From the UHGV virus genome UHGV-0092341: a stretch of 31,377 nt of DNA; one strand, given 5' to 3'. The notes beneath the pieces were generated by a model. The model made no database searches. It was not told the origin of the DNA and saw only the letters and a program-made list of their open reading frames with translations. Made by a program: the position numbers and the translations under genes. The DNA is from a virus. Positions 7,795-28,686 of this stretch are shown piece by piece; the stretch's first letter is position 1, and the number at the start of each line of letters is the position of its first letter.

Positions 7795-7841
7795 CATGAT
7801 GCGGCAGGGATAGTGGGATTTCTGTTAATGTGGTTTAGGGA

Positions 7842-9179: not shown

Positions 9180-9237
9180 GTTGCATTCTCCTCTGTGAAT
9201 AATTCATCGTTTATCCTGCACATCCCGTATCCCCGGC

Positions 9238-9288
9238 TCTCTTAACGCGCTTTAAAATCCTTCGCGCCCTGTATTTGTGATGCTGTCT
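9238..9288 (+). promoter_or_regulatory. candidate late promoter P-lys (conserved bipartite motif, copy 1)
   Basis: TCTCTTAA-N4-CTTTAAAATC-N20-ATGCTGTCT, ending 22 nt before the first late gene; same architecture at three other sites. Confidence 0.5.
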
Positions 9289-9309
9289 CCACCAGACAAG
9301 GAGACACAC

Positions 9310-9660
9310 ATGAAAAACCTGAAAAAATTCATTCCCCCTGTTAAAAAACCTCGCCTCAGCGGCTGGCTGCTGACCTCAGTGCTGTTGCTGGGCACCATCG
9401 CTCTGGTCTCGCCACAGCAGTTGCCTGTTGTGATCTACAAGCTGGCACTCATCACGCTGGCAGCAGTGCTGGGTTACTGGCTTGACCGTTCGCTCTTCCC
9501 TAAAGCCCGTCCCGGTCAGTACCTGAAACATGAAGACAGGCTGATGGCTGATGGGCGTTTCCCTGTACAGACCGGCCTTCACCTGGTGTTTTCTGCTGCG
9601 TTAATCCGCCGTGCACTGATTGTTGCAGCAGTCTGTCTGGCCGTAGCGATGGGGCTTTAA
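9310..9660 (+). CDS. holin-like membrane protein (three predicted TM segments)
   Basis: SD AAGGAG before ATG 9310; three hydrophobic helices; first gene of lysis cassette, stop overlaps endolysin start. Confidence 0.55.
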   Translation: MKNLKKFIPPVKKPRLSGWLLTSVLLLGTIALVSPQQLPVVIYKLALITLAAVLGYWLDRSLFPKARPGQYLKHEDRLMADGRFPVQTGLHLVFSAALIRRALIVAAVCLAVAMGL

Positions 9661-10403
9661 TGATGACTATTTATATGTACTGGCCTCAGGTTGTCTGGGC
9701 CGTGCTGGTATTGCTGGGGCTGGGCAGCGAACTGGCCCGCCACGGGCAGGCCCAAACGGGTAAGCACAGTTTCTGGTGGCGGCTCTTTGGTTCAGTAACA
9801 GTAGCCTGGCTGCTCTGGTGTGGCGGCTTCTTCAGTCAGGCCCGCGCAGCGCAGCCTCCGCAGGCTGCGCTGCAGTATCGCGATGATGTGATCCGTAATG
9901 CCCGGCTTGAATGGGGACTGTCTGCGCCGGTGGCCGATTTCGCTGCGCAACTGCATCAGGAAAGCGGCTGGCGACCTGATGCGGTCTCGCCGGTTGGTGC
10001 TCAGGGACTGGCGCAGTTCATGCCCGCCACTGCTGACTGGATAAGTCAGCTGATGCCGGGGCTTAACAGCCGTGAGCCGTTTAATCCGGCATGGGCCATC
10101 CGGGCGCTGGTCAGCTATGACCGCTGGCTGTGGCAGCGCGTCAGCGCCGCCAACGACTGCGAACGTATGGCCATGACACTGTCGGGCTATAACGGTGGTC
10201 TGGGCTGGGTACAACGGGACAGGCAGCTAGCATCACAGAAAGGCCTGGACAGCACCCGCTGGTTCGGGCATGTCGCCACGGTGAATGCCGGACGCAATGC
10301 TGCCAGCTGGCGGGAGAACCGCCATTATCCACAACGCATCCTGCACGAGCTGGCACCGCGATATCTCACATGGGGAGGCTGCAGCTGTGTGGCATCTGGT
10401 TAA
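9660..10403 (+). CDS. endolysin, lytic transglycosylase (SLT domain) with N-terminal hydrophobic segments
   Basis: SLT motifs QESGW, GLAQFMPATA, SGYNGG; N-terminal ~70 aa carry two hydrophobic stretches. Confidence 0.8.
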   Translation: MMTIYMYWPQVVWAVLVLLGLGSELARHGQAQTGKHSFWWRLFGSVTVAWLLWCGGFFSQARAAQPPQAALQYRDDVIRNARLEWGLSAPVADFAAQLHQESGWRPDAVSPVGAQGLAQFMPATADWISQLMPGLNSREPFNPAWAIRALVSYDRWLWQRVSAANDCERMAMTLSGYNGGLGWVQRDRQLASQKGLDSTRWFGHVATVNAGRNAASWRENRHYPQRILHELAPRYLTWGGCSCVASG

Positions 10404-11037
10404 AAATCTACCGTGGCGCGGCATTCTGCTGGCCATTCTTATCAATGCCTTTCTGGTCGGCCTGTATGCCATGGGATACAGAAGTGGTCATGACTCTGCA
10501 AAGCGTGACGGTGATGCCGCGCTAAGTCAGTTGCAGTCAGCATTTGACGCGTACAAAACGGAGCAGGCAACGCTTGAGAATGCTGCGCTGCGGGCCTGGG
10601 CCAGACGGTATCAGGAGCAGGTGGCCGCCGGGCAGCAGGCTGAAGCCGGTTACCTTGAGCAGATTGCTCAACTGGAGAGCCGGAACAAACAACTACAGGG
10701 GCAAATTAACGATGTCACACAGCGCTGGATTGATGAAAAAGGTAAGAGCCATCCCATTGAGTGCGTGTTTACTCGCGGTTTCGTGCGCCAGTACAACGCT
10801 GCACTCGGATATGACAACGCATCCGTCGACACCGGTCATTCAGACTCAGTTGCCGCCGCTGGCACCCGCTCTGGCACAGCGACCGGGCAACCTGAAACCG
10901 CTGATACCCGGTTACGCGATTCGGGTGTCTCCCAGCGTGACGTTCTCGCCAACATCATCGACAACGCAGGGCAATGTCGTCGCTGGCGAAACCAGATAAA
11001 CGCGCTGCTGGATGAACGGGAAGGATTACAGAAATGA
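10387..11037 (+). CDS. i-spanin (Rz-like): N-terminal TM plus coiled-coil periplasmic domain
   Basis: GTG start 10387 preceded by GGAGG (8-nt spacer); TM segment then long helical region; fully contains a lipoprotein ORF in the +1 frame. Confidence 0.55.
   Translation: MWHLVKNLPWRGILLAILINAFLVGLYAMGYRSGHDSAKRDGDAALSQLQSAFDAYKTEQATLENAALRAWARRYQEQVAAGQQAEAGYLEQIAQLESRNKQLQGQINDVTQRWIDEKGKSHPIECVFTRGFVRQYNAALGYDNASVDTGHSDSVAAAGTRSGTATGQPETADTRLRDSGVSQRDVLANIIDNAGQCRRWRNQINALLDEREGLQK
10733..10999 (+). CDS. o-spanin (Rz1-like) outer-membrane lipoprotein, embedded in i-spanin gene
   Basis: MKKVRAIPLSAC... signal peptide with lipobox-like LSAC / AVSC; proline-rich mature part; entirely inside 10387-11037 in another frame. 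Confidence 0.6.
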   Translation: MKKVRAIPLSACLLAVSCASTTLHSDMTTHPSTPVIQTQLPPLAPALAQRPGNLKPLIPGYAIRVSPSVTFSPTSSTTQGNVVAGETR

Positions 11038-11360
11038 CACTGCAGGTTGAATTCTGGACGGTGGTGAGTTTTCTGCTCACCTTCATGGGGTTTGTTGGAG
11101 GGCTCGCCAAATGGTTGTTCAGTAAAACAGAAGAACGCCAGGCGGCACGATTCGCCTCCCTTGAACAGGCCCTGCAACAGTCCGCCTCCAACTGGGGCGA
11201 GCTGGAAAAGGAATTTATGCGATTTAAAGCGGATTTACCGCTGAATTATGTCCGTCGCGAGGATTATATCCGTGGCCAGACAGTCATTGAAGCCAAACTG
11301 GACGCGCTTTACAACAAACTGGAAGTGGTACAACAGTACCGCAATACCGGAGGTCAATAA
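11034..11360 (+). CDS. small membrane-anchored protein (108 aa)
   Basis: N-terminal TM segment then helical region; ATG overlaps spanin stop. Confidence 0.5.
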   Translation: MTLQVEFWTVVSFLLTFMGFVGGLAKWLFSKTEERQAARFASLEQALQQSASNWGELEKEFMRFKADLPLNYVRREDYIRGQTVIEAKLDALYNKLEVVQQYRNTGGQ

Positions 11361-11671
11361 TGGTCGATATTATCCGTGTGCGCCGCGAATCCCTGCGCTG
11401 GAGTCTGCTGGTTGCCCTGAACAAAACCCGCCCTTACACCGCCAGCGAGACGCTGCTGCTGGACGTGTCCCGTGCCATCTACCCGGACACCACGCAACTG
11501 GAGCTGCGCCGTGAGCTTGATTACCTGGCAGATCGCAAAATGGTGGAGCTGGAGAAGAGACCGTCCGGTGACTGGTTTGCCGATCTGAGTCGCCTTGGTG
11601 TGGATATTGTGGAATACACCGTGGAATGCGGCCCCGGTATTGCCCGCCCGGAAAAATACTGGAGTGAATGA
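11360..11671 (+). CDS. hypothetical late protein (103 aa)
   Basis: ORF in track; overlapping start/stop with neighbours; position between lysis genes and terminase. Confidence 0.5.
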   Translation: MVDIIRVRRESLRWSLLVALNKTRPYTASETLLLDVSRAIYPDTTQLELRRELDYLADRKMVELEKRPSGDWFADLSRLGVDIVEYTVECGPGIARPEKYWSE

Positions 11672-12222
11672 TTATGGGACGTCGCAGCAGCATTGATTCT
11701 CTCCCGACAGAAGTACGCCGCTGGCTGGAGCGGGCGCTGACGGAGAATAACTTCAGTGGATATGCCCGGCTGGAAGCCCTGCTGAAGGAGAAGGGATACG
11801 TCATCACCCGCTCTTCCCTGCAGCGGTTTGGCTACAAAATGGAGCGACAACTGGCCCGCATCCGCGCCGCCACCGAGGCCGCGCGTCTGATGGCGCAGGA
11901 AGCCGGTGACGAGGCGGACGATCGTTCTGCCGGGATGATGGCACTGATTCAGACCGAGATGCTGGATGTTCTGATGCGTCTGCAGGAAATCGGGGAAAGT
12001 GATGATCCTGCAAAACGCGCAAAACTGCTGGCCACTGCTTCAGAAAGTATTGCCACTCTGGTACGGGCTTCGGTGACCCACAAACGATTCCGGGCCGAGG
12101 TGCTGGCAAAAATTGAGGCGCGGATGAATGCTCTGGAAAAACAGGCGAAGTCCGGCGACACCCGCCTGAGTCTGGAAACCCTGAAGATGGTGCGGGAACA
12201 GATTTACGGGGTGATCTCATGA
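11668..12222 (+). CDS. putative terminase small subunit (Mu gp27-like)
   Basis: 184 aa, immediately upstream of and overlapping large terminase; helical, basic N-terminus. Confidence 0.55.
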   Translation: MIMGRRSSIDSLPTEVRRWLERALTENNFSGYARLEALLKEKGYVITRSSLQRFGYKMERQLARIRAATEAARLMAQEAGDEADDRSAGMMALIQTEMLDVLMRLQEIGESDDPAKRAKLLATASESIATLVRASVTHKRFRAEVLAKIEARMNALEKQAKSGDTRLSLETLKMVREQIYGVIS

Positions 12223-13535
12223 CAGCAGCCATTCAGCTGTATCCCTACCAGCAGACGTGGTTTCTGGATCGTGCCCGTTTCAAGATTGGTATGTTTGCCC
12301 GCCAGACGGGCAAGACGTTCACCACCACGCTGGAACTGGTTGACGACTGTTTTGAAACGGAGGCATCAGGGGGACGCACACGCTGGGTGATCCTCTCGCG
12401 TGGGGAACGTCAGGCAAAAGAAGCCATGGTGGAGGGGGTGAAAAAACACTGCAGTGCCTACCGGATGGCGGCCCGTGAGGTGGAAAGTTATTACCGTGCT
12501 GAAAGCGGCGAACGCTACACCATGCTTGAGGTGGAGTTACCCGGTGGCTCCCGTATCACGGCCCTGCCGGCGAATCCCGACACGGCCCGTGGTTTTGCAG
12601 CCAATGTCTTTCTGGATGAGTTTGCCTTCCATGCTGACAGCCGCAAAATCTGGACCGCCCTGTTTCCGGTCATTTCCAACGGCTACAGACTGCGGGTAAC
12701 GTCGACACCGAACGGCAAGGGCAACAAGTTTTATGAACTGATGACCAGCAGCGCCCTTGAAAATGTCTGGTCACGTCACATCGTGGATATTTACCGTGCT
12801 GTGCACGATGGCCTGCCGCGTGATATTGCGCAGATGCGGCAGGCTCTCAATGATGATGATGCCTGGGCGCAGGAATTTGAACTGAAGTGGCTGGATGAGG
12901 CATCGGCCTGGCTGACGTTTGAACTGATTGACGGCGTGGAGCACGATGCTGCCGGGCTGGCGATGCACTATACGGGTGGCCCCTGCTTTGTGGGAGTGGA
13001 TATTGCTGTCCGTAATGATCTGTTTGTGATCTGGGTGCTTGAACAGGTGGGGGATATCTACTGGACCCGGGAAATCATCACCCGTAAACGGGCCACATTT
13101 GCTGAGCAGGATGCTTTGCTGGATGACGTATTTTTCCGTTACCGCGTGCTGCGCTGCTGTATGGATCAGACCGGGATGGGAGAAAAGCCGGTGGAGGATG
13201 CACAGGGTCGCCATGGCAGAAGCCGTGTGGAGGGGGTGATATTTAACAGCCCGAACAAGCTCACCCTCGCGACCCGTGGCAGGGAGATGTTTGAGGACCG
13301 CCGCCTGCGTATTCCGGCGGGAGATGTGGTCCTGCGCAGTGATCTGCATAAACTTCGCAAGGTTACCGGGCCTACCGGAACTCCCCGCTTTGTGGCCGAA
13401 AGTGATGCAGCAGGTCACGCCGACCGCACATGGGCCTGTTTTCTGGCAATAAACGCCACTGACGGACCGTCAGGGCCGGTGATGGCCCGTTCGCGTCACC
13501 GCCGTGAGGCTGGTCATATACTGGAGGGATTCTGA
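12219..13535 (+). CDS. terminase large subunit (Mu gp28-like)
   Basis: 438 aa; Walker A-like FARQTGKTF near N-terminus; followed by portal. Confidence 0.8.
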   Translation: MTAAIQLYPYQQTWFLDRARFKIGMFARQTGKTFTTTLELVDDCFETEASGGRTRWVILSRGERQAKEAMVEGVKKHCSAYRMAAREVESYYRAESGERYTMLEVELPGGSRITALPANPDTARGFAANVFLDEFAFHADSRKIWTALFPVISNGYRLRVTSTPNGKGNKFYELMTSSALENVWSRHIVDIYRAVHDGLPRDIAQMRQALNDDDAWAQEFELKWLDEASAWLTFELIDGVEHDAAGLAMHYTGGPCFVGVDIAVRNDLFVIWVLEQVGDIYWTREIITRKRATFAEQDALLDDVFFRYRVLRCCMDQTGMGEKPVEDAQGRHGRSRVEGVIFNSPNKLTLATRGREMFEDRRLRIPAGDVVLRSDLHKLRKVTGPTGTPRFVAESDAAGHADRTWACFLAINATDGPSGPVMARSRHRREAGHILEGF

Positions 13536-15031
13536 TGGCGAGGGGGATCTGGGTTTCACCCGATGAATTTGTTGCTTTTTCTGAGCCTCAGAAATCACTG
13601 ACCGCGCAGATTGCCTCCCGCAGCCGCGCGATCGACTTTTACGGACTGGGCATGTATCTGCCCAATCCTGATCCCATTCTCAAGGCTCAGGGACGGGATA
13701 TCCGTATCTACCGCGAACTGCGCACCGACCCGCTGGTTGGGGGCTGTATCCGCAGACGTAAAGCAGCGCTCAAATCACTGGAGCGTGGACTGGAGCGCGG
13801 TCACGCTTCTGCCCGGGTCTTCCGTTTCATCCGCGACATGCTCGACGATCTGGATCTGTCCCGCATCATCGGTGAGATGAGTGATGCCGTGCTCTACGGG
13901 TATCAGCCCTGTGAAATCATGTGGGGCCGTTCGGTCAGGGCGTGGGCAGTGACGGATATTGTCGGCAAACCGCCTGAGTGGTTTCAGTTTGATACGGACA
14001 ACTGCCTGCGCTTCCGGGCGCGTGATGCGGGTGTGGAGGGTGAGCTGCTGTCACCGTCAAAATTCGTGGTGCCGGCACAGGATGCCTCGTATGACAATCC
14101 TTACGGTTTCCCGGACCTGTCCATGTGCTTCTGGCCGGTCGCCTTCAAGAAAGGCGGGATGAAATTCTGGCTCCGCTTTGCCGAAAAGTTTGGCTCCCCG
14201 TGGGTGATCGGTAAACACCCGAGGGGTGCAAATGATGCAGAGATTGAAAAACTGCTGGACTCCATGGAGCAGATGGTGGAGGACGCGGTGGCCGCCATCC
14301 CCGATGACAGCAGCATCGAACTCAAAGCCGCGGATGGTAAGGCGGACAGCAGCGAGGTATTCCGCGAGCTGATCACACTGTCACGCAGTGAGATCTCCAT
14401 TGCATTACTTGGTCAGAATCAGACCACGGAAGCGAACAGTAACAAGGCCTCTGCACAGGCCGGGCTGGAGGTAACGGCTGATATCCGCGATGCGGATGCG
14501 GACATCATTCAGGCAGCAGTGAATCAGGTTATCAGAACGGTGGTCACCCTGAACTTCGGCGATGTGCCGTGTCCGGTCTGGGCCATGTGGGAACAGGAGA
14601 CCATTGATGACACCCGCGCCACCCGCGACGAAAAACTCACCCGGGCGGGTCTGCGTCTGACCCCGCAATACTTTAAGCGTGAGTACCAACTGCAGGACGG
14701 CGATATTGACGAGACATCACCGTCGGAACGCCAGAATAACATGCTGCCGCTGTCATTTGCCGAGGCGATTGATGCCGATATTCAGGCTCAGCAGCAGCTT
14801 GACGACGCGCTGGACATTCTGATGAACGGAGGTGTGTTAAATGGCACGCTGGAACCCGTCCTGGCACCTCTGTTTAAGCGGGTCGAAAACGGGGTTAACC
14901 CGACTGAGCTGCTGGGCGAACTGGCGGAGCTCTACCCTCAGATGAACACGGACGATCTGCAGGAACGGCTGGCCCGTATTCTCTTTGTGGCAAATATCTG
15001 GGGACGTCTGCATGAGCGTGACAACGGCTGA
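13535..15031 (+). CDS. portal protein (Mu gp29-like)
   Basis: 498 aa, directly after large terminase; conserved order terminase-portal-F. Confidence 0.75.
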   Translation: MARGIWVSPDEFVAFSEPQKSLTAQIASRSRAIDFYGLGMYLPNPDPILKAQGRDIRIYRELRTDPLVGGCIRRRKAALKSLERGLERGHASARVFRFIRDMLDDLDLSRIIGEMSDAVLYGYQPCEIMWGRSVRAWAVTDIVGKPPEWFQFDTDNCLRFRARDAGVEGELLSPSKFVVPAQDASYDNPYGFPDLSMCFWPVAFKKGGMKFWLRFAEKFGSPWVIGKHPRGANDAEIEKLLDSMEQMVEDAVAAIPDDSSIELKAADGKADSSEVFRELITLSRSEISIALLGQNQTTEANSNKASAQAGLEVTADIRDADADIIQAAVNQVIRTVVTLNFGDVPCPVWAMWEQETIDDTRATRDEKLTRAGLRLTPQYFKREYQLQDGDIDETSPSERQNNMLPLSFAEAIDADIQAQQQLDDALDILMNGGVLNGTLEPVLAPLFKRVENGVNPTELLGELAELYPQMNTDDLQERLARILFVANIWGRLHERDNG

Positions 15032-15833
15032 ACTGGCGTACTGCATGACGCTTCCCCCGAAGCGGGCAGTCAGTTACCTGAAGTCCAAAGGGTATCAGAT
15101 TACCTGGGACTGGGAAGAAATGTGGCAGGAGGCCCATGCCCGCGCCTTTACCGTTGCTAAAGTGACCCGCCTGGATATCCTGGAAGATATTCGCGGGGCA
15201 CTGCAGCAGGCTGTCGATGAAGGAAAAACCGATCGCTGGTTCCGGCAGGAGCTGGAGCCGGTGCTGAAGCGTAAGGGATGGTGGGGACCACGTGACACGA
15301 CTGACCCGGTAACGGGTAAGCCGGTCACCATTCAGCAGGGCAGTCCGTGGCGGCTCGATACCATCTTTCGCACCAATATGTCCGTACTCTACAGCGCCGG
15401 TCGTTGGGCGGAACAGATGGAAAACGTCGACGACAGGCCGTACTGGATGTATACCGGCATCAACGACAGCCATACCCGCAGGAGCCATCTGGCGCTGCAT
15501 GGTCTGGTGCTGCGCTGGGATGACCCGTTCTGGCAGGCATTTTACCCGCCGAACGGCTGGCGCTGCCGCTGTAGTGTGATTGCCCTGAGTGCGGCGGATG
15601 TACGTGCCCGTGGCCTGAAGGTTATCAGCTCCGGCTCTGCCATGGGCCAGGAACTGAAACTGGTCTCAGAGAAAACCGGCGAAATGCGGAACGTGGCCAC
15701 CTTTAATACCGGCACCACGAAGGTGACCACCGACGTCGGCTGGTCTTATGCACCGGGGGCAGCATACCGTCCCGACCTGGCCCGCTATCAGGGTACGCTT
15801 CAGCCACTGGCACAACAGGAACTGAGAGGATAA
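15012..15833 (+). CDS. head morphogenesis protein (Mu F-like)
   Basis: Follows portal; start uncertain (ATG 15012 or 15045; track gives 14985). Confidence 0.65.
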   Translation: MSVTTAELAYCMTLPPKRAVSYLKSKGYQITWDWEEMWQEAHARAFTVAKVTRLDILEDIRGALQQAVDEGKTDRWFRQELEPVLKRKGWWGPRDTTDPVTGKPVTIQQGSPWRLDTIFRTNMSVLYSAGRWAEQMENVDDRPYWMYTGINDSHTRRSHLALHGLVLRWDDPFWQAFYPPNGWRCRCSVIALSAADVRARGLKVISSGSAMGQELKLVSEKTGEMRNVATFNTGTTKVTTDVGWSYAPGAAYRPDLARYQGTLQPLAQQELRG

Positions 15834-15835
15834 CA

Positions 15836-16294
15836 ATGGCTTCCGATAACCTGGTCAGTATCACCATTAACGATAAATCCCTGCGCCGGAGCCTCCGTGC
15901 GCTGGATCTTGCTGCCACAGACCTGGAGCCCGCGATGCGCAAAATCGCCGGAACCCTGCTGGCGGAAACACAGTTTAACTTTCTTGATGAGGGGCGTCCG
16001 GGGTGGATCCCCTCGCTGGCAGCGGAAGAACGTGACGGGCAGACACTGCAGGATACCGGGCGTCTGATGGGGTCAGTATCAACCGACCATGACGACCGGC
16101 AGGCTGTTGTGGGGACCAACGTTGTTTACGGTGCCATTCACCAGTTCGGGGGTAAAACGGGGCGTAATGAGTCTGTTGAACTTCCGGCCCGCCCGTTCCT
16201 GCCGGTGACGGGGGATGGAGAACTACAGCCTGAAGTGGTAATCCCCATCCTCGATACCATTGTCCGCCATCTTGAATCAGCGGCCCGTCGCTGA
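15836..16294 (+). CDS. virion morphogenesis protein (Mu G-like)
   Basis: 152 aa, directly after F-like gene; followed by a 214-bp gap containing a late-promoter motif. Confidence 0.6.
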   Translation: MASDNLVSITINDKSLRRSLRALDLAATDLEPAMRKIAGTLLAETQFNFLDEGRPGWIPSLAAEERDGQTLQDTGRLMGSVSTDHDDRQAVVGTNVVYGAIHQFGGKTGRNESVELPARPFLPVTGDGELQPEVVIPILDTIVRHLESAARR

Positions 16295-16431
16295 GTTTTC
16301 TCTCTTCAGGCGGGTGATTTATCATTGCCAGCGAATGAGGGGCTGTATTACCTTTATAAAGGCTTTACAGCCTCTGTTTTATAACCGCCTCCGGTTCACC
16401 GCATTGCTTTCCCTGTCCTTCTCCCCTGATG

Positions 16432-16482
16432 TTTTCTAAAGCAGATTAAAATCGCCGGGCCTGCATTTCTCACAAACTGTCT
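16432..16482 (+). promoter_or_regulatory. candidate late promoter P-I (conserved bipartite motif, copy 2)
   Basis: TTTTCTAA-N4-GATTAAAATC-N20-AAACTGTCT, ending 27 nt before ATG 16509; upstream half weaker than other copies. Confidence 0.45.
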
Positions 16483-16508
16483 CCGACAACATAACGCGGG
16501 ACAGCAAA

Positions 16509-17624: not shown

Positions 17625-17638
17625 TTTAAGGAGAGAGC

Positions 17639-18592: not shown

Positions 18593-18601
18593 GGAGGCGT
18601 T

Positions 18602-18940: not shown

Positions 18941-18941
18941 C

Positions 18942-19852: not shown

Positions 19853-20103
19853 TGAAAGAATACCGCTATTCCGGCCCGGCCAGCGGCGTCACGCTGTCGG
19901 ACGGAACCGAAATCCTGCTCTGGCCGGGGAAGACGGTTTCCCTGCCGGAGGAGCATGACTACGTGAAGGTACTGGTGGCGCTGAAACATCTGACGCCGGT
20001 ACCTGAAGAGACTAAACCCGCCGGCACACCGGCTGTGCAGTCACCAAAGCGCAGAAGCAGCAGTGACAGCGAAGTGAAAACGGAGGACACCCATGGCAGC
20101 TAA
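19849..20103 (+). CDS. small hypothetical protein (84 aa)
   Basis: ORF in track; overlaps neighbours at both ends. Confidence 0.45.
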   Translation: MMKEYRYSGPASGVTLSDGTEILLWPGKTVSLPEEHDYVKVLVALKHLTPVPEETKPAGTPAVQSPKRRSSSDSEVKTEDTHGS

Positions 20104-21520
20104 CTATCTGCATGGTCCCGAAACCATTGAGGTGGAAAACGGTGCCCGCCCGGTTAAAACGGTGAAATCTGCCGTTATTGGCCTGATTGGTACCGCCCCG
20201 ATGGGGGATGTCAATACGCTGGTACAGTGCCTGTCTGAGAAAGACGCAGCGGCATTTGGCAGCCAGTTCACCGGCTTTACCATTCCGCAGGCGCTGGATG
20301 CGATTTATGACCATGGTGCAGGTACCGTTCTGGTCATTAACGTCCTCGACCCGGCGAAACATAAAACGGCGATCGAGGATGAGGTGGTTACCTTTGACAA
20401 ATCGACAGGGCAGGCCAGACTGGCGCATCCGGTTGTCGCTAATGTGGTGGTGAAAAACAGTGAAGGCAGCACCTCCCACACGGCGAACACGGACTACCGT
20501 GTTGATGCGCAGGCGGGTGTGCTCACGAACCTGGGCAAGGCTATTGAGGCCGGTGGCAGCGTGAAGGTGAGCTATGAGTACGCGGACCCGTCGAAGGTGA
20601 CTGCGGCGGACATCATCGGCGGGGTGAACAGCGCCGGAAACCGAACCGGCATGAAGCTGCTTAACGACAGCTTCAACCTGTACGGCTATTTCGCCAAAAT
20701 TCTGATTGCGCCGGTGTTCTGCACCCAGAAGAGTGTCGCAGTTGAGCTTATCGCCATGGCAGAGAAGCTGGGCGCGGTAACCTACATTGATGCGCCTGTC
20801 GGTACCACCTTTGCACAGGCTCTGGCAGGTCGTGGCCCGGAAGGCACCATCAACTTCAATACCAGCTCCGACCGCGTCCGTCTGTGCTATCCGCATGTGA
20901 AGGTATATGACCCGGTGACAAACACAGAGCGTCTGGAGCCGCTCAGCCAGCGTGCAGCAGGTCTGCGTGCCAGAGTCGATCTGGACAAGGGCTACTGGTG
21001 GTCATCCTCCAATCAGGAGATTCTGGGGATCACCGGCGTGGAGCGCCAGCTGTCCGCGATGATTGATGACCCGCAGAGTGAGGTGAACCTGCTTAACGAA
21101 CAGGGGATCACCACGGTATTCAGCAGTTACGGCAGCGGCCTTCGTCTGTGGGGTAACCGGACGGCAGCATGGCCAACGGTCACCCATATGCGTAACTTTG
21201 AGAACGTTCGCCGCACCGGTGATGTGATCAACGAGTCCATTCGTTATTTCAGCCAGCAGTACATCGACATGCCGATTACTCAGGCGCTGATTGATGCACT
21301 GACGGAGTCGGTCAACGCCTACGGTCGCAAAATGACTGGTGATGGTGCGGTACTGGGCTTCCGTTGCTGGTTTGATCCGGCCCGCAATCCGGAGACGGAG
21401 CTGGCCGCCGGGCACCTGTTGCTGAGCTACAAATATACGCCACCACCGCCGCTGGAGCGACTGACGTTTGAGACTGAGATCACCTCGGAATACCTGTTAA
21501 CCCTGAAAGGGGGCAACTGA
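20093..21520 (+). CDS. contractile tail sheath protein (Mu L / P2 FI-like)
   Basis: 475 aa; SD ACGGAGGA upstream; immediately followed by tube gene. Confidence 0.8.
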   Translation: MAANYLHGPETIEVENGARPVKTVKSAVIGLIGTAPMGDVNTLVQCLSEKDAAAFGSQFTGFTIPQALDAIYDHGAGTVLVINVLDPAKHKTAIEDEVVTFDKSTGQARLAHPVVANVVVKNSEGSTSHTANTDYRVDAQAGVLTNLGKAIEAGGSVKVSYEYADPSKVTAADIIGGVNSAGNRTGMKLLNDSFNLYGYFAKILIAPVFCTQKSVAVELIAMAEKLGAVTYIDAPVGTTFAQALAGRGPEGTINFNTSSDRVRLCYPHVKVYDPVTNTERLEPLSQRAAGLRARVDLDKGYWWSSSNQEILGITGVERQLSAMIDDPQSEVNLLNEQGITTVFSSYGSGLRLWGNRTAAWPTVTHMRNFENVRRTGDVINESIRYFSQQYIDMPITQALIDALTESVNAYGRKMTGDGAVLGFRCWFDPARNPETELAAGHLLLSYKYTPPPPLERLTFETEITSEYLLTLKGGN

Positions 21521-22041
21521 TGTCAAAGATTGAGATAAACCGCATCACGAATGCCAACATCTATCTGGATGGTACTAACCTGCTGGGACGGGCTGAGGAA
21601 GTTAAACTCCCCGATGTCTCCATGATTATGCAGGAACACAAGGCGCTGGGGATGGTGGGTAAGGTGGAACTCCCGGCTGGTTTTGACAAACTGGAAGGCG
21701 AAATCAAATGGAACAGCTTTTACCGCGATGCGATGCTGTCTGCCGCGAACCCGTACAGGTCGCTGGCACTGCAGTGTCGTTCCAGCGTCCAGCGCTACAG
21801 CTCGCAGGGGCTGATTGACGAAATCCCGCTGGTCACCTTCCTGACGATTATGTTCAAGAAGAACCCGCTGGGGACGTTCAAACAGCACGAGAACGCCGAG
21901 TTCTCCAGTAGCTTCACCTGCACGTATATCAGACAGGTACTGGATGGTGAAGAGCTGCTGCAACTGGACTATCTGGCCAACATCTTCCGGGTCGGCGGTG
22001 TTGATCAACTGACTGACTACCGTATCAATATCGGGGGCTGA
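21520..22041 (+). CDS. tail tube protein (Mu M / P2 FII-like)
   Basis: 173 aa, overlapping start with sheath stop; typical size and position. Confidence 0.75.
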   Translation: MSKIEINRITNANIYLDGTNLLGRAEEVKLPDVSMIMQEHKALGMVGKVELPAGFDKLEGEIKWNSFYRDAMLSAANPYRSLALQCRSSVQRYSSQGLIDEIPLVTFLTIMFKKNPLGTFKQHENAEFSSSFTCTYIRQVLDGEELLQLDYLANIFRVGGVDQLTDYRINIGG

Positions 22042-22043
22042 CG

Positions 22044-22325
22044 GTGAGTGTTGAACTGACGGATAAAGGAGGACGATGTGCGGCACTGGGCATGTCAAAT
22101 GGTACGTGGTTTACCCTCCTTGATATTCCGGGGGTGGAAACCCTTTTTAATACCCGTAAAACCAATGACCCGATTGACTGCACACGTTCAAAGGCCCGCA
22201 AACTGGCGGATTTGATTGAAGCATGGGAGCCTCCCGACCACTGGTTCTCCGGCATCGGCAAATCTGAGGGAAAGACGCTTCTCATCGCTTTCCTGCGTAA
22301 CTGCAAGGGGTTTCGCACTTGCTGA
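22044..22325 (+). CDS. uncertain ORF (93 aa, GTG start)
   Basis: No convincing RBS/start combination (SD AAGGAGG is 3 nt from an out-of-frame ATG and 19 nt from the in-frame ATG 22092). Confidence 0.3.
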   Translation: MSVELTDKGGRCAALGMSNGTWFTLLDIPGVETLFNTRKTNDPIDCTRSKARKLADLIEAWEPPDHWFSGIGKSEGKTLLIAFLRNCKGFRTC

Positions 22326-22331
22326 CATCAC

Positions 22332-22357
22332 AGGGGCTCCGGCCCCTTCTTCTTAAT
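22332..22357 (+). terminator. terminator-like hairpin (AGGGGC-TCCG-GCCCCT) followed by TTCTTCTT
   Basis: Read directly; overlaps upstream edge of the late-promoter motif at 22349. Confidence 0.4.
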
Positions 22358-22399
22358 CTCCTTTAATATCCGTCACGCGCTTCTCCCGACATACTGCCC
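22349..22399 (+). promoter_or_regulatory. candidate late promoter (conserved bipartite motif, copy 3), upstream of tail chaperone/tape-measure block
   Basis: CTTCTTAA-N4-CTTTAATATC-N20-ATACTGCCC, ending 24 nt before ATG 22423. Confidence 0.5.
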
Positions 22400-22422
22400 T
22401 GAACTTACACAGGAGCACAATC

Positions 22423-22758
22423 ATGTCACAGACCCCATCCGATACTTTTAAATTGTCTTATCCCTTCACCACTGCTGCAGGCACCAGAATTGAGCTGGTT
22501 GAACTGAAACGCCTGACGGTAAAAGACCTGAAGCAGGTGCGCAAAATCAGCAAAAACCCGGCAGACTGGGACGAACCGCTGATTGCCCGCAGTACTGGTC
22601 TTCTCCCGGAAGATCTCGACAATATGGATCTGGCTGATTACCTGCAGTTACAGAAACGATTTCAGCTCATCACGGGGATGGGTGAGAGCAACCAGGGCGC
22701 TGACGCAGGCGCAGGGGCTGCTGGCGAGATGGTTCCGGTTTCAGCCGGGGGAGATTGA
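22423..22758 (+). CDS. tail assembly chaperone (P2 gpE-like)
   Basis: 111 aa acidic protein just upstream of tape measure; SD CAGGAG; overlapped at 3' end by a protein-like ORF in the +1 frame. Confidence 0.6.
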   Translation: MSQTPSDTFKLSYPFTTAAGTRIELVELKRLTVKDLKQVRKISKNPADWDEPLIARSTGLLPEDLDNMDLADYLQLQKRFQLITGMGESNQGADAGAGAAGEMVPVSAGGD

Positions 22759-22840
22759 TGCCCTCGATACTGACGATCTGGAGATGTGGCTGGAGCAGGC
22801 TGAAGAGCAAATAAAAAGCGAGTACGGCGACAAATCATAG
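22748..22840 (+). CDS. frameshift extension of tail chaperone (E'-like), +1 frame
   Basis: +1-frame reading ...GEIDALDTDDLEMWLEQAEEQIKSEYGDKS is protein-like; the -1 frame has a stop at 22683. G5 run at 22747-22751 is a possible slip site. Confidence 0.4.
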   Translation, partial: GEIDALDTDDLEMWLEQAEEQIKSEYGDKS

Positions 22841-22915
22841 TACAGACAGCCGCCAGTAGCGGCTGTTCTGCGTTATCCCCTCACGTCTTTTCACCTTCCC
22901 CGGAGGTTAACCACT

Positions 22916-25867
22916 ATGTCGGGACAGTTTTCAGTCGGCGTTGTTATCGGCGGGATGATTGGTAGCACATTCCGTTCTGCAATGAGCGGTACCCGCCGTG
23001 CGCTTGATTCCCTGAGCGATACCTCACGCCGCCTGCAGGAACGTCAGAACGCTTTAACCCGTGCAACAGAACGTTATGGTCAACTGGGTTCTTCCCGGAT
23101 GCAGCATCTCAACAGCGAGCTGCTGCGGGTAAGCCGCACCATGGAGCAAATTGAGCGCCAGCAGCGCCGTCTGTCAGCGGCATCCGCTACCAGTGATGCG
23201 CTGAAAGCTAACCGCATGGCGCTGTATGGTCAGGGGATTGAAGCGTATGGCATGGCACAGACTGTTTATCATACGGTTTCCCCTGCCGTTCAGCAGTCCA
23301 TGTCTTTTCAGGACAAAATGATTGATATGTCGATCACCGCAAAATATGACAATAAAACGCGGGATGGACTTGCCGGACAGATAAAAGGCTGGGCGCTTAA
23401 ATACAATCAGTATCAGGATGAGCTGCAGGAGGCGGTGGGTTCACTCATCAGCGACAATATTGATAATGTGTCAGATATCGGTTTTCTGATGCCGGATATT
23501 GCCCGCGCGGCAACGGCAACACGCACGTCTGCTCAGGACTGGGCAAAAGTGGCCGCAGTCTGGCAAAACTCCCTGAAAGGTGCGGCCAGAGATTTTGGTG
23601 CCGTTCAGAATATTATGGCTTATGCCGGTGACCAGGGGTCATTTGAAATCCCGGATCAGGTCAAGTGGATGCAGTCCCTGGCCCCAATGATGGCGGGTAT
23701 TGCCAGTGGAAAAGAGGCTGTTGCTGAAATCGGGGCCAGTCTCCAGATAGCAAAAATCGGTGCAGGTTCCACCGACGAAGCAGCCAATAATTTTAAAAAC
23801 TTTCTTACCAAAATTTTTGCCCGCGATACTCAGAAACAGTTTGCTGATCTGGGTATTGATTTGCAGGGATCTATTGCGAGTTATAAAGCTGCGGGGATCT
23901 CTCCGATTGAAGGGATGTTGAGTGTTATAGAACGTTACCTCAATGCCAAAAGCCCCGAAGCGCTGGCCGGCTTCAAATCAGCCATGAAAATAAAGAATGA
24001 TACGGCAAGAGATGAGGCACTTCAGGCTCTGGCGAAAAACTTTGGTCTGGGCGATATGTTCGCGGATATGCAGGTCATGGCATTTATCCGCCCGATGCTG
24101 GCCAACATGGACAGATATCGAGAGATCCGTGCCGGTGCTCTCAGGGCTGCGGATAACGATTTGCTTGCCAGTGCTTATGATCAGCGGCTGAAATCTCCCC
24201 TTGAAGCCACTAAAACACTTATGGTCAGCAGTCGCGATCTGGCAATTACGCTGGGCGATCAATTAGCTCCATCTTTTATTTCTTTGACTCAGGAACTGCT
24301 TCCACTCATTCAGGGGGCAAAACACTGGGTAGCGACTCACCCGCAATTTGTCAGTGGGGCTTTTAAGCTCATCAGTGCGCTCCTTGCGATTAAGATAGCG
24401 ACTGTTGGTCTCAAACTGGGGCTGAATCTCCTTATTTCCCCCTTTGTAAGTGTCTGGAAAAATGCTGTTTTACTTCGGGCCAACTGGCTTCGTCTGTCGC
24501 TCGCACTGGGGCAAGGCGGTAAGCTCCGCTGGCTGGTGACCGGATTTAGCGCCGTCGCCAGAGGAGCCAGAACACTGAGTGGCGTGCTCTCCGGGGGGCT
24601 GGTTCGCGGAATTATGCTCGCCGGACGTGCTGTTCTCTGGATTGGGCGTGCGCTGATGATGAATCCCATCGGTCTCGTTATCACCGCTGTCGCGGCAGCA
24701 GCTTACCTTATCTACCGCAACTGGGGGGCAGTCAGTGGCTGGTTTAAACAGCGCTGGGCAGACATTCAGGAAGCCTTTAACGGCGGCATTGTGGGAATTG
24801 GTAAGTTACTGATTAACTGGTCGCCGGCAGGCCTGCTCTATAAAGCCTTTGCGGCTGCGCTGAAATATTTCGGCGTTGCTCTGCCGGCAAAGTTCACCGA
24901 CTTCGGTGGCCATCTTATCGACGGTCTGATTAACGGTATCAAAAACAAATGGGGGTCGCTCAAATCCAGTGTAACCGGAATGGGTGACAGCATCAGTAGC
25001 TGGTTTAAACAGTGCTGGGCTGACATTCAGGAAGCCTTTAACGGCGGTATCGCGGGAACTGGTAAGCTGCTGATTAACTGGTCGCCGGCAGGTCTGCTCT
25101 ATAAAGCCTTTGCAGCTGCGCTGAAATATCTTGGTGTTGATCTGCCGGCAAAGTTTACCGACTTCGGTGGCCATCTTGTCGATGGTCTGATTAACGGTAT
25201 CAAAAACAAATGGGAGTCGCTCAAATCCAGTGTAACCGGAATGGGTGACAGCATCAGTGGCTGGTTCAGCGAAAAGCTGGGCATTCATTCGCCGAGCCGC
25301 GTGTTTATGGGCTTTGGTGACAATATCGCGCAGGGGGCCGCCATTGGCCTGCAGCGGACCACTCCGCTTGCAGCTCTGGCCGGGCAGCGAATGGCCAGTG
25401 AACTGCTCCCCAGAATGCCCGTGAGCATCCAGGGGCCAGAAATACGGGATAACACTTCAGGTGTTCGCTTCAGTATGCCGTTGCCCGATATCAACGGGTT
25501 TATGTCGTCTGCTAAAAATGCGATCGGAGCCGTAATCAATAGTTTGTCTTCCATGCCCGTTATTCCGCTCTCCACCCGGGCATCGATTTTACCAGGGCAA
25601 CGTCTGGCAAATGAGATGACACCGGATGTTCCCCGTATCCCCTCGTCTGAAATCCTGGCTGCCGGATATTCAGGCCGTGGTGCAGCTGCAACCGGCGGTG
25701 GAACGTCTGGTGGTATCCAGGTCAGCTTTAATCCTCAGTTTTTCCTCAATGGCAAGGAAACCACAGCGCCTGCAGGACTGACTGGTGCCCTGAATATGAG
25801 TCTGCATGAGCTGGAAAAAATGCTGGAGCGTCTGCTGGCTCAGAAACAACGTAAGGAGTACCGCTGA
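22916..25867 (+). CDS. tail tape measure protein
   Basis: 983 aa, helical N-terminal half, hydrophobic segments, internal tandem repeat; downstream of chaperone pair. Confidence 0.85.
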   Translation: MSGQFSVGVVIGGMIGSTFRSAMSGTRRALDSLSDTSRRLQERQNALTRATERYGQLGSSRMQHLNSELLRVSRTMEQIERQQRRLSAASATSDALKANRMALYGQGIEAYGMAQTVYHTVSPAVQQSMSFQDKMIDMSITAKYDNKTRDGLAGQIKGWALKYNQYQDELQEAVGSLISDNIDNVSDIGFLMPDIARAATATRTSAQDWAKVAAVWQNSLKGAARDFGAVQNIMAYAGDQGSFEIPDQVKWMQSLAPMMAGIASGKEAVAEIGASLQIAKIGAGSTDEAANNFKNFLTKIFARDTQKQFADLGIDLQGSIASYKAAGISPIEGMLSVIERYLNAKSPEALAGFKSAMKIKNDTARDEALQALAKNFGLGDMFADMQVMAFIRPMLANMDRYREIRAGALRAADNDLLASAYDQRLKSPLEATKTLMVSSRDLAITLGDQLAPSFISLTQELLPLIQGAKHWVATHPQFVSGAFKLISALLAIKIATVGLKLGLNLLISPFVSVWKNAVLLRANWLRLSLALGQGGKLRWLVTGFSAVARGARTLSGVLSGGLVRGIMLAGRAVLWIGRALMMNPIGLVITAVAAAAYLIYRNWGAVSGWFKQRWADIQEAFNGGIVGIGKLLINWSPAGLLYKAFAAALKYFGVALPAKFTDFGGHLIDGLINGIKNKWGSLKSSVTGMGDSISSWFKQCWADIQEAFNGGIAGTGKLLINWSPAGLLYKAFAAALKYLGVDLPAKFTDFGGHLVDGLINGIKNKWESLKSSVTGMGDSISGWFSEKLGIHSPSRVFMGFGDNIAQGAAIGLQRTTPLAALAGQRMASELLPRMPVSIQGPEIRDNTSGVRFSMPLPDINGFMSSAKNAIGAVINSLSSMPVIPLSTRASILPGQRLANEMTPDVPRIPSSEILAAGYSGRGAAATGGGTSGGIQVSFNPQFFLNGKETTAPAGLTGALNMSLHELEKMLERLLAQKQRKEYR
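24740..25261 (+). repeat. in-frame tandem duplication inside tape measure gene (2 x 261 bp = 2 x 87 aa)
   Basis: WFKQRWADIQEAFNGG...DSISS and WFKQCWADIQEAFNGG...DSISG are near-identical; second copy starts exactly 261 nt after the first (24740 vs 25001). Confidence 0.85.
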
Positions 25868-26751: not shown

Positions 26752-26963
26752 TGTTTCTTGAACATGTTACCCGTGACGGAGAGCGCTGGGATTCGCTGGC
26801 ATGGCAGTACTACGGTGACCCGCTGGGCTATCCCCGGATTATTGCCGCCAATCCGCACGTGGCCATCACGCCGGTGCTGCCCTCCGGGCTGTTGTTACTG
26901 ATCCCGGTGATTGAGGCTGAAGAAGCCCGTACAGAAGAGGATATTGCCCCATGGCTGAGATAA
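26748..26963 (+). CDS. tail protein X-like (LysM-like, P2 gpX family)
   Basis: 71 aa; pattern RWDSLAWQYYGDP...IIAANPHV resembles gpX/LysM motif; sits between gpU-like and gpD-like genes as in P2. Confidence 0.6.
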   Translation: MMFLEHVTRDGERWDSLAWQYYGDPLGYPRIIAANPHVAITPVLPSGLLLLIPVIEAEEARTEEDIAPWLR

Positions 26964-28120
26964 ACAGCACTGCGCAAGTCACATCAGCGTTAACCGGCGT
27001 CAGCGATGTGCTGACACCGGTGTTCACTCTGTGGTATCTGCAGAAAAACATCACCTCTGATATCGCGCCTTATGTCACCCGTGTGACCTGGAGCGATAAC
27101 ATCAAAAATGAGTCCGATACCATTGAGGTGGAACTGGACGACACCGATGGCCGCTGGCTGGATAAATGGTATCCGGGCAAGGGTGACACGCTGACGCTGA
27201 AAATGGGCTATCAGGGCGAGAAGCTGCTGTCCTGCGGTACGTTCTCTATAGACGAGATCGAAGTGAGTTCGCCCGCTTCCGTTGTTTCTATCCGTGGGGT
27301 GGCCACCTCGGTTAACAGTGCCCTGCGGACTAAAACCAGTCGTGGTTTTGAGAACACCACGCTGGCAGCTGTTGCGGGGCGGATTGCCAGAAAGCACCGA
27401 CTGAAACTGGTGGGCAGCATTGAGTCCATCAGAATCGACCGGGTGACCCAGTATGCTGAAACGGACGTGGGTTTTCTGCGCCGGCTGGCCAGCGAGTATG
27501 GTTATGCAGTGAAAGTGGTCAGTGACCAGCTGATTTTTTCTCATCTGGCCACACTGCGCAGTCAGGAGCCGGTCAGGCAGTTAAAACCGCAGGATGTGGC
27601 CCGCTTTTCCCTGCGTGACACCATCAACCGGGTCTATAAATCTGCAAAGGTAAAACACCAGAAAAGCAGCAGTAAAAAACTGATCGTCTACGAAGCTGAT
27701 GGTGGTACCCGTGAAAGCGACAAACAAACCAAAGGCGGTAAGGTCACCAGTGCCGACTCACTGAAGGTCAACAGCCGCGTCAGCGACCCGGACAGCGCCC
27801 GGATTAAAGCGGATTCGGCGCTGGCCAGGCATAACGAATACCAGCAGAACGGCTCCCTGACGCTGACGGGAACACCTCAACTGACTGCAGGCAACAAAAT
27901 TGAACTGGTGGGTTTTGGACAGTTATCCGGGCCATGGCTGATAACCACTGCCCGCCATGCGTTTGACCGCAACAGCGGCTATATCACCGAACTGGAGGTG
28001 GCGCGAGGGCCGGTCACGCAGGGCAAGGCGAAGAAAGGTAAAAAGACCGGCAAGAGTCAGACACTGACCGTCTATAAACCGGACGGCAGCACATCTACGG
28101 TAACAAAGGAGAAGAAATAA
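26951..28120 (+). CDS. tail/baseplate hub protein (P2 gpD / Mu P-like)
   Basis: 389 aa (P2 gpD is about this size); lysine-rich C-terminal tail; conserved order. Confidence 0.65.
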   Translation: MAEINSTAQVTSALTGVSDVLTPVFTLWYLQKNITSDIAPYVTRVTWSDNIKNESDTIEVELDDTDGRWLDKWYPGKGDTLTLKMGYQGEKLLSCGTFSIDEIEVSSPASVVSIRGVATSVNSALRTKTSRGFENTTLAAVAGRIARKHRLKLVGSIESIRIDRVTQYAETDVGFLRRLASEYGYAVKVVSDQLIFSHLATLRSQEPVRQLKPQDVARFSLRDTINRVYKSAKVKHQKSSSKKLIVYEADGGTRESDKQTKGGKVTSADSLKVNSRVSDPDSARIKADSALARHNEYQQNGSLTLTGTPQLTAGNKIELVGFGQLSGPWLITTARHAFDRNSGYITELEVARGPVTQGKAKKGKKTGKSQTLTVYKPDGSTSTVTKEKK

Positions 28121-28632
28121 TGGCAGGTGTCACCCGTCAGGTCGGTACGGTCAGCGCCGTCGATGCCGACAAGGTTCAGGCCCGCGTTCGTCTGCCTGAG
28201 TGCGATAACCTGCGCACTAACTGGCTTAACGTACTCCAGCGCAACACCCAGGATAACAAGGATTACTGGCTCCCTGACGTGGGGGAGCAGGTTGAGGTGC
28301 TGCTCGATGCCAACGGCGAGGATGGTGTCATTCTGGGCGCGGTGTACTCAGGCGTCGATAAGCCACCGTTCAGCGACAAAAACGTCCGGGGCACGAAATA
28401 CGCGGATGGCGCAGAGTTCAGCTATAACCGCGCGACCCATACGCTGACGGTCAAAGGTGGTATCGAGCGCGTAGTAATCGAGGTTGCGGTAGGTATCAGC
28501 CTGAAGGGGAAAACCATTGATTTGACCGCTGACACCACCACGGTGAACGGCAACCTTGAAATCAACGGCAATGCCCACTCCACAGGTAGCATGCTGTCTG
28601 ACGGCCAGAACTCTAATCACCATTCCCACTGA
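28120..28632 (+). CDS. baseplate central spike (P2 gpV / Mu gp45-like)
   Basis: 170 aa; C-terminal beta-rich segment typical of spike tips; conserved position. Confidence 0.65.
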   Translation: MAGVTRQVGTVSAVDADKVQARVRLPECDNLRTNWLNVLQRNTQDNKDYWLPDVGEQVEVLLDANGEDGVILGAVYSGVDKPPFSDKNVRGTKYADGAEFSYNRATHTLTVKGGIERVVIEVAVGISLKGKTIDLTADTTTVNGNLEINGNAHSTGSMLSDGQNSNHHSH

Positions 28633-28633
28633 C

Positions 28634-28684
28634 CTTCTTAAACGCCTTTAATATCGGCGTTCCCGCACAGGGGCAATACTGCCC
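28634..28684 (+). promoter_or_regulatory. candidate late promoter (conserved bipartite motif, copy 4), upstream of baseplate genes
   Basis: CTTCTTAA-N4-CTTTAATATC-N20-ATACTGCCC; spacer holds hairpin GGGGCA-ATAC-TGCCCC; motif ends 3 nt before ATG 28687. Confidence 0.5.
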
Positions 28685-28686
28685 CC

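Follow-up and report, generated by a model that had tools for sequence, protein, structure and literature searches.

The 31,377-nucleotide (nt) stretch of the virus genome UHGV-0092341 analyzed here (the window) carries copies of a bipartite motif upstream of its late genes, and these copies are most probably late promoters that host sigma-70 RNA polymerase would be unable to use alone and that a single protein of the Mor/C family would activate. From the sequence comparisons presented below, we give this reading a probability of roughly 0.87. A preliminary description of the window reported four copies with a fixed spacer, at 9238-9288, 16432-16482, 22349-22399 and 28634-28684, and all of them are present there, upstream of the lysis, protease/capsid, tail-chaperone/tape-measure and baseplate blocks, respectively, as had been described. 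Judging from an annotated twin (a prophage of Escherichia coli MS 21-1, 97.6% identical) and from relatives at the protein level, the window is most of a BcepMu-type (Mu-like, transposable) E. coli prophage.

The consensus first proposed for the motif fits copies 3 and 4 exactly, whereas copy 1 shows one mismatch and copy 2 five, all in the upstream block; despite these, copy 2 (TTTTCTAA-AGCA-GATTAAAATC) retains the core and the fixed spacing. The third block of that consensus, CTG(C/T)C(C/T), is also present, but instead of being an activator site, it corresponds to the last bases of a -10 hexamer followed by an inverted-repeat arm. We recast the core as (N)TAA-N6-TTAA with a G/C-rich N6, that is, a dyad of 14-16 base pairs (bp) separated by exactly 23 bp from a -10-like hexamer, NANNNT. 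In copy 1 (P_lys, 9242-9284, plus strand as for copies 2-4), the candidate Mor box TTAAcgcgctTTAA at 9242-9255 (TTAA-cgcgct-TTAA) and the hexamer GATGCT at 9279-9284 predict, from their geometry, a transcription start at about 9291, upstream of the holin ATG at 9310. In copy 2 (P_I, 16436-16478), CTAAagcagaTTAA at 16436-16449 (CTAA-agcaga-TTAA) and CAAACT at 16473-16478 would lead to a start at about 16485-16486, with the protease/scaffold ATG at 16509, and in copy 3 (P_chaperone, 22353-22395), TTAAtctcctTTAA at 22353-22366 (TTAA-tctcct-TTAA) and CATACT at 22390-22395 would lead to a start at about 22402, with the tail assembly chaperone ATG at 22423. Copy 4 (P_W, 28638-28689) combines TTAAacgcctTTAA at 28638-28651 (TTAA-acgcct-TTAA) with AATACT at 28675-28680. 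The count of four copies was, nonetheless, one short, because a fifth strong box lies on the minus strand at 7838-7796 (P_dam, 7796-7838), with CTAAaccacaTTAA at 7838-7825 (CTAA-accaca-TTAA), the same 23-bp spacer and CATCAT at 7801-7796. All five boxes are formed by two 5-bp inverted repeats around a G/C-rich hexanucleotide, and the five hexamers always have A at position 2 and T at position 6.

The pattern TAA-N6-TTAA-N24-A-N3-T, with 13 defined bases, occurs six times in the window against 0.02 expected (100 dinucleotide-preserving shuffles; maximum 1), and, besides the four reported copies, the matches are the copy 1 dyad in its leftward reading and the new site on the minus strand (7837-7796). 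To test the sites independently, a weight matrix was trained on 52 sites from Pseudomonas, Burkholderia, Ralstonia and other non-enterobacterial relatives plus Pm of phage Mu, with no site from the window or from its enterobacterial prophage relatives. When both strands of the window are scanned with this matrix, the top five positions are the four copies and the minus-strand site, being 21.7 bits for P_lys, 21.5 bits for P_W, 21.3 bits for P_dam (third-best in the window), 20.9 bits for P_I and 16.2 bits for P_chaperone, compared with 10.9 bits for the best score in 100 shuffles.

A consensus scan found neither a sigma-70-type promoter nor a -35 element at any of the motifs, and 6 promoter-like matches in the late region against 9.9 expected. 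The same layout is found in Mu Pm, the Mor-dependent promoter, which has a -10 element but no -35 (PMC4287176, PMC4390567). There, Mor footprints a 16-bp dyad at -51 to -36, centered at -43.5 (PMC4287176), which consists of two 5-bp inverted repeats separated by a G/C-rich hexanucleotide (PMC4390567). Our pattern has a match in the Mu genome just after the mor gene, which is Pm itself (GTAAagccggTTAA, GTAA-agccgg-TTAA, N23, TATCCT), and in the window the 23-bp spacing is kept in all five copies, so that the center of the dyad falls at -42.5 to -43.5 if initiation takes place 7-8 nt after the hexamer. With a weak -10 and no -35, these late promoters would be out of reach for host sigma-70 RNA polymerase alone.

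The hexamer at N23 is not the only sequence that could be read as a -10. The proximal half-site (TAAAAT in copies 1 and 2, TAATAT in copies 3 and 4, within CTTTAAWATC) agrees with TATAAT at four or five of the six positions, and the copies could then be activator-independent, -10-only promoters starting about 30 nt further upstream. However, high-GC relatives read TTAAAAG or TTAACTG at this place, with the T at -7 lost and TTAA plus the hexamer at N23 kept, no -35 is found at a usable distance, and the equivalent bases of Mu Pm belong to the footprinted Mor site (PMC4287176). Moreover, the constant distance between the hexamer and the gpW ATG described below (6-7 nt in 52 of 54 loci) would be left unexplained, and we consider this explanation extremely unlikely.

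The preliminary description had drawn an analogy with the four C-dependent late promoters of Mu, with a different sequence. The logic of activator-dependent late promoters holds in this analogy, but the sequence of the copies matches the Mor box of Mu and not its C box. The C box of Mu Pmom, TTATgccccaATAA (TTAT-N6-ATAA, at 35696 in the Mu entry L005), represents a type of site that is absent from the five window boxes, and since the half-sites of the window are TTAA/TTAA, as in Pm, and not TTAT/ATAA, the boxes are of the Mor type. The same observation bears on a three-tier cascade, where the copies would be promoters of the Mu C type in need of a second, C-like activator encoded in a Mor-dependent middle operon. 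In favor of it, P_I (CAAACTGTC) and Mu PI (CAAACTGAC) are alike in their -10 regions; nevertheless, a single Mor/C-family gene is annotated in each of MS 21-1, KP12, BcepMu, phiE255 and Komp_PAO1_1, and the weight-matrix scan gave no Mor box upstream of any regulator gene in the window, making such a cascade very unlikely.

Conservation in relatives, on which the promoter proposal had been made to depend, is clear. The pattern is present at the same four junctions, P_I included, in every relative examined, namely, KP12 (~84% nucleotide identity), phiE255 and BcepMu (~50% amino-acid identity), Pasteurella AFS-2018a (~44% amino-acid identity), Komp_PAO1_1 and Ralstonia YO107_2, and the last two show four matches each, at the expected positions, against 0.01 expected. 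Also, 80 loci amounting to 1.04 Mb were retrieved from bacterial genomes by a gpW profile (Enterobacterales, Pseudomonas, Burkholderia, Lysobacter, Chromobacterium and others), and all 96 matches to the strict pattern in them are on the sense strand, with none on the antisense strand; 54 immediately precede gpW, 39 fall at the chaperone junction, 5.8-7.0 kb before this gene, and three lie elsewhere. A variant of the box from Lonsdalea reads TTAA-N6-TTAC. For the lysis junction, a box with the hexamer at N23 is found in all 46 distinct holin-upstream regions from viral contigs, where the information content is 1.65 bits per position for the box, 1.65 for the hexamer and 0.5-0.7 for the spacers.

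This regularity bears on the nature of the protein that would bind the dyads. Any dimeric protein could bind a dyad, and Mor binding is predicted here, so the boxes might be operators of a phage repressor, GemA, or host IHF or Fis, which would modulate the late promoters rather than create them. Nonetheless, the fixed 23-bp distance and the sense orientation (96:0) suit an activator that replaces a -35 contact and not a repressor, the layout is identical to that of the one site with demonstrated Mor binding (Mu Pm), and, in our own reading, the dyads do not fit the IHF consensus WATCAANNNNTTR; operators of this kind are therefore decidedly unlikely. Two further candidates were rejected. A mobile repeat, either a miniature inverted-repeat transposable element or a repetitive extragenic palindrome, was discarded because the copies are syntenic, strand-fixed and conserved in short blocks only, and promoters for an alternative sigma factor were discarded since no sigma-factor gene is annotated in the relatives examined and the spacing does not fit sigma-28 (our reading).

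A separate group of prophages, from Pigmentiphaga, Burkholderiaceae and Devosia (loci L081-L084), has no Mor box and shows instead a perfect dyad, CCGGACA-N2-TGTCCGG, about 60 nt upstream of gpW. This dyad lies 24 nt upstream of a GATCAT hexamer that has a GC-rich inverted repeat on its flanks and the gpW ATG 6 nt after it, an arrangement suggestive of the same design of promoter for an activator of another specificity.

Regarding the activator, the window has no identifiable gene for it, as already stated in the preliminary description, and a tblastn search of the window with the Mor-family protein of MS 21-1 gives a best hit of E=2.8. The suggestion that a Mor/C-like protein would be encoded to the left is borne out by the MS 21-1 prophage, where such a gene is located about 1.9 kb left of the position equivalent to the left edge of the window, and its product matches Pfam PF08765 with 148 bits. 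A Mor homologue from this E. coli prophage group has the accession WP_001281696.1. One Mor-family gene, at the end of the early operon, is found in each of six relatives (E. coli MS 21-1, KP12, BcepMu, phiE255, Komp_PAO1_1 and the Pasteurella phage). The recognition helix, VSLQWVY, is conserved across the relatives in parallel with the box, and it differs from that of Mu Mor (VTFNTVY) and also from that of Mu C.

Based on these data, a single Mor/C-family activator, whose gene would come last in the early operon, shortly left of the window, would bind the 16-bp dyad through its 5-bp inverted repeats, TTAA(N). Placed at about -43.5, it would replace the missing -35 contact and recruit sigma-70 polymerase, in the manner of Mor at Mu Pm. 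Through five boxes, one early protein would then act on six units: lysis, a leftward cargo gene, protease/capsid, chaperone/tape measure, baseplate W-J-I-H and dam. The cascade would have two tiers, early and late, with no separate middle stage, whereas that of Mu has three.

Some observations weigh against this proposal. The distal half-site of copy 2 is imperfect (CTAA), and the leftward reading of box 1 reaches only 3.9 bits in the weight matrix. Because the activator gene lies outside the window, its presence in this genome is deduced from the relatives. Moreover, the BcepMu-group activator has 31% identity to Mu Mor and 35% to Mu C, the latter over a shorter stretch, and since it is about equally distant from both, the label Mor-type rests on the DNA site and not on protein orthology. 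Literature searches found no transcript 5' ends, binding data or genetics for this phage group, and no account of late promoters or Mor boxes in BcepMu-type phages was found in searchable full text, the original BcepMu paper (J Mol Biol 2004) being outside its scope. Finally, differential RNA sequencing of uninduced Burkholderia cenocepacia J2315, a BcepMu lysogen (PMC4603805, Table S3), gives no starts at the predicted late positions when mapped as J2315 position = 609955 minus BcepMu position, and the only sense-strand starts in the BcepMu late region are inside gpV and upstream of gp20. In this case, because the cells were uninduced, the data are uninformative rather than contrary.

The same data set lists, within the transposition gene gp08 (BCAS0547), a very strong start in antisense orientation, at position 605588 of J2315 chromosome 3, about 4367 of BcepMu on the plus strand, also in uninduced cells (PMC4603805). 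This start may correspond to an antisense RNA against the early operon.

The position of the start codons adds a second level to the analysis. In copy 4, the gpW ATG at 28687 begins 6 nt after the hexamer, with its A as the seventh base, and coincides with the predicted start, in agreement with the near-leaderless transcript that had been suggested for this copy. In 52 of the 54 loci with a strict box upstream of gpW, an in-frame gpW ATG follows the hexamer at a distance of 6 nt (in 42 loci) or of 7 nt (in 10), an arrangement that would give a conserved leaderless mRNA for this baseplate gene. The hairpin previously noticed in copy 4 is found as GGGGCA/TGCCCC at 28670-28685, where the arm in the third block pairs with GGGGCA upstream of the hexamer; the arms of this hairpin flank the -10, abut the ATG and are lineage-specific, with a mean z-score of -1.9 over 49 distinct sequences.

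In copies 1-3, on the other hand, the arm is made up of the hexamer and the 6 nt that follow it, and it can pair with the Shine-Dalgarno and start region of the first gene, with duplexes of -9 to -11.5 kcal/mol in the window. The lysis pair (9285-9305, plus strand) joins GTCTCC at 9285-9290, just upstream of the predicted start, with GGAGAC at 9300-9305 in the Shine-Dalgarno region, and its duplex of -11.5 kcal/mol has a z-score of -2.4 (mean of -3.1 over 32 distinct relatives, 81% of them below -2). For the chaperone set, the mean z-score is -1.7 and the arm sequences differ by lineage. A formal covariation count was dropped for the lysis fold-back because its stem core, GTCTCC/GGAGAC, is nearly invariant, as it holds the Shine-Dalgarno sequence; thus, the support for the fold-backs comes from the shuffling z-scores and from the lineage-specific arms at the chaperone and gpW promoters.

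Because the predicted start comes after the upstream arm, these structures could arise in read-through RNA only. Read-through RNA would then be folded shut, and only transcripts starting at the Mor-dependent promoter would be free for translation, a safeguard about which we are less certain. Taken as a whole, a scheme in which translation is gated by the start position (the arm either sequestering the ribosome-binding site or abutting a leaderless AUG, with read-through RNA silent) and one palindromic Mor box activates two divergent promoters, as discussed below, is tentative, and we see it as slightly less probable than not. The leaderless AUG in this scheme would be that of gpW everywhere and that of the protease gene in the beta-proteobacterial phages.

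Regarding the latter, in phiE255, BcepMu and Ralstonia YO107_2 (L004 5037-5090, L003 18813-18862 and L008 18079-18120, respectively), the protease/scaffold ATG lies 6-7 nt after the hexamer, and an inverted repeat surrounds the protease hexamers of these beta-proteobacterial phages (CGCCC-GATGAT-GGGCG, for example). From this spacing, a leaderless mRNA would also be expected for the protease gene of this group, and the RefSeq start of BcepMu gp32 (18850), upstream of the ATG in the leaderless position, may be misplaced.

The fold-back arms resemble those of the insertion sequences IS10 and IS50, where a sequence immediately before the start of the element's own transcript can pair with the ribosome-binding site and the inhibitory hairpin, formed only in read-through RNA, blocks translation of the transposase (fold-back inhibition). 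Unlike in IS10 and IS50, the arms described here belong to late promoters of a phage, with the -10 hexamer overlapped by the upstream arm, and the case is made from complementarity statistics.

The conserved hairpins also allow a different view, in which the elements would act mainly in RNA, as processing sites, terminators or translational operators, and the leaderless-looking gpW would arise by cleavage. In its favor, hairpins with lineage-specific arms are conserved over or beside the -10 regions, and terminator-like hairpins precede copies 2 and 3. However, base pairing does not involve the best-conserved elements, TTAA-N6-TTAA and the hexamer, the dyad is not long enough and has too much A/T for a stable RNA stem, and an Rfam search of the whole window gave no matches at gathering thresholds. 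As the structures are better explained as an addition that silences read-through transcripts, a role mainly in RNA is extremely improbable, and activator-dependent promoters continue to be the preferred explanation of the motif.

The fifth box stands upstream of the minus-strand gene 6888-7652, a D12-class N6-adenine methyltransferase (dam), and would drive its transcription on this strand, with a predicted start at about 7789 and a leader of about 137 nt before the ATG at 7652. In KP12, dam is also preceded by a dyad, GTAAatcgcgTTAA, for which a candidate hexamer is found at N24. In 17 distinct relatives, the start of dam lies 177-180 nt left of the lysis box itself, while other relatives have unrelated cargo there; in the window, about 1.4 kb of other genes separate dam from the lysis box, and dam comes with a box of its own. 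A hairpin with a 10-bp stem, CCAGCCCGGC/GCCGGGCTGG (7785-7758, minus strand), stands at the beginning of the predicted dam leader, without a following U-run on that strand. This stem is kept in KP12 with a different loop, a related stem-forming stretch occurs in the contigs where dam abuts the lysis box, and it could be a 5' stabilizer or a regulatory structure.

Also, the lysis box probably fires in both directions, as suggested by its symmetry and by what lies on its left. The dyad of copy 1 is palindromic, with the minus-strand pattern match at 9213-9254, and a leftward -10-like hexamer, CAGGAT (9213-9218, minus strand), lies 23 bp left of it, which would give a start at about 9205-9207. 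Behind this hexamer comes the minus-strand gene 8436-9179, encoding 247 amino acids, with a GAGGAG Shine-Dalgarno sequence. Among the 46 distinct lysis regions, a CANNAT hexamer is present 23 or 24 bp left of the box in 39, compared with 0-9 for other spacings, and this spacing is kept although the intervening sequence and the leftward gene vary among relatives. Divergent activation from a palindromic box would fit a centrosymmetric Mor/C tetramer.

The leftward gene is part of a slot between dam and the lysis box (8056-9179) that contains a convergent pair of open reading frames, one of 134 amino acids on the plus strand and the one of 247 amino acids on the minus strand, the latter matching P-loop/AAA_30 weakly (E=0.005, which misses the Pfam cutoff). 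In relatives, this slot is occupied by dam or by other, unrelated genes, and in the window it looks like a variable cargo site under late control.

Terminator-like hairpins accompany two of the promoters. The one reported as adjoining copy 3 is indeed found at 22332-22347 (plus strand), as AGGGGCTCCGGCCCCT followed by TCTTCTT; it ranks first among the terminator-like sites of the region, is also present before the chaperone promoter of KP12 and phiE255, and would close the head/sheath/tube transcription unit directly before this promoter. A second one, at 16277-16294, precedes copy 2, and both most likely separate transcription units. Between the latter and P_I, in the gap between genes G and I, a palindrome, CCTTTATAAAGG (core 16351-16362), forms part of a longer inverted repeat, GCTGTA...TACAGC (16342-16371), about 86 bp upstream of the P_I box. 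Its core, TTTATAAAG(G)C, occurs at the equivalent place in KP12, BcepMu, phiE255, Komp_PAO1_1 and Ralstonia YO107_2. Since the strong gyrase site of Mu sits in the equivalent G-I gap, this palindrome might be its analogue or a second protein-binding site.

As for the distribution of the prophage, bases 8400-23400 of the window match 644 of 5,426 complete E. coli genomes, mostly at 95-99% identity, and also the phages PhiKM (99%), KP12 and Phi06_2974 B (both ~84%). The early operon runs leftward, with the transposase, an ExeA-like B protein, Gam and others, and the Mor-family gene is the last; it is followed by the repressor and dam region and by the rightward late genes, in the order holin/lysis, terminase, portal, G, protease/scaffold, capsid, sheath, tube, chaperone, tape measure, D, V, W, J, I and fibers.

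These results provide a regulatory map, with one early activator, five boxes and six units, for a prophage that is widespread in E. coli and has relatives in Enterobacterales, Pseudomonas, Burkholderia, Ralstonia and Pasteurella. They also provide more than 100 naturally varied sites for a Mor/C-family protein, which are useful because cryo-electron microscopy has reportedly yielded structures for the activation complexes of Mor and C (bioRxiv 10.1101/2025.05.02.651988). The box shared with Mu Pm opens the possibility of cross-activation between Mu and BcepMu-type prophages. Moreover, the predicted leaderless baseplate mRNA, the anti-Shine-Dalgarno arms within the promoters and the apparently bidirectional box might be reusable as tightly off, activator-gated expression parts.

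In comparison with other phages, the late promoters of P2 carry TGT-N12-ACA centered near -55, bound by a zinc-finger protein of the Ogr/B class. The likeness to P2 and 186 consists of several weak late promoters under a small phage activator and of a tail gene order related to that of P2 (FI, FII, E, T, U, D, V, W, J, I, H), although the promoters are placed before E and before W in the window and before FI and V in P2. A box of the Ogr type was rejected, as no TGT-N12-ACA occurs within -90 to -30 of the four predicted starts.

The closest comparison is with Mu. The window boxes and Mu Pm have in common the TAA/TTAA half-sites, the G/C-rich N6, the 23 bp to a weak hexamer and the absence of a -35, together with a T-rich stretch just upstream of the dyad (in Mu, the site for the polymerase alpha subunit's C-terminal domain) and a transcription terminator against or inside the promoter. 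Also, in Mu as in the BcepMu-type relatives, the PF08765 activator is the last gene of the early operon. However, Mu has a single Mor promoter, which drives the middle operon encoding C, whereas here five boxes would directly drive late structural, lysis and dam genes, and this suggests that the three-tier cascade of Mu is shortened to two tiers in the BcepMu-type group. Other differences from Pm are an apparently bidirectional box, the fold-back arms and the leaderless start at gpW. With the C-dependent promoters of Mu (Plys, PI, PP and Pmom), the window shares the control of several late operons by one Mor/C-family protein beside a weak -10. The positions correspond for lys, I and the baseplate region, and the function for mom and dam, the dam promoter being a parallel to the late control of mom; on the other hand, dam lies on the opposite strand beside the lysis genes, and mom at the genome end. 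The other Mu C sites are irregular, while the window boxes are regular TTAA-N6-TTAA, and an extra promoter is found here before the tail chaperone/tape-measure genes.

At the level of the core promoter, Mu PI (ATAA-N24-CAAACTGAC) and window P_I (TTAA-N23-CAAACTGTC, 16473-16484) share the -10 region CAAACTG, and TCCCGCAC, common to Mu Plys and PI (L005, about 17990-18056 and 10390-10480), also occurs in the spacer of copy 4 (28661-28669), at the same distance to the hexamer as in Mu PI. The core promoters of Mu and of the window may thus share ancestry despite their different activator boxes. Finally, the late promoters described here add to the Mor/C-dependent class a member that has gone unreported but is no surprise, and several details of their design deserve testing.

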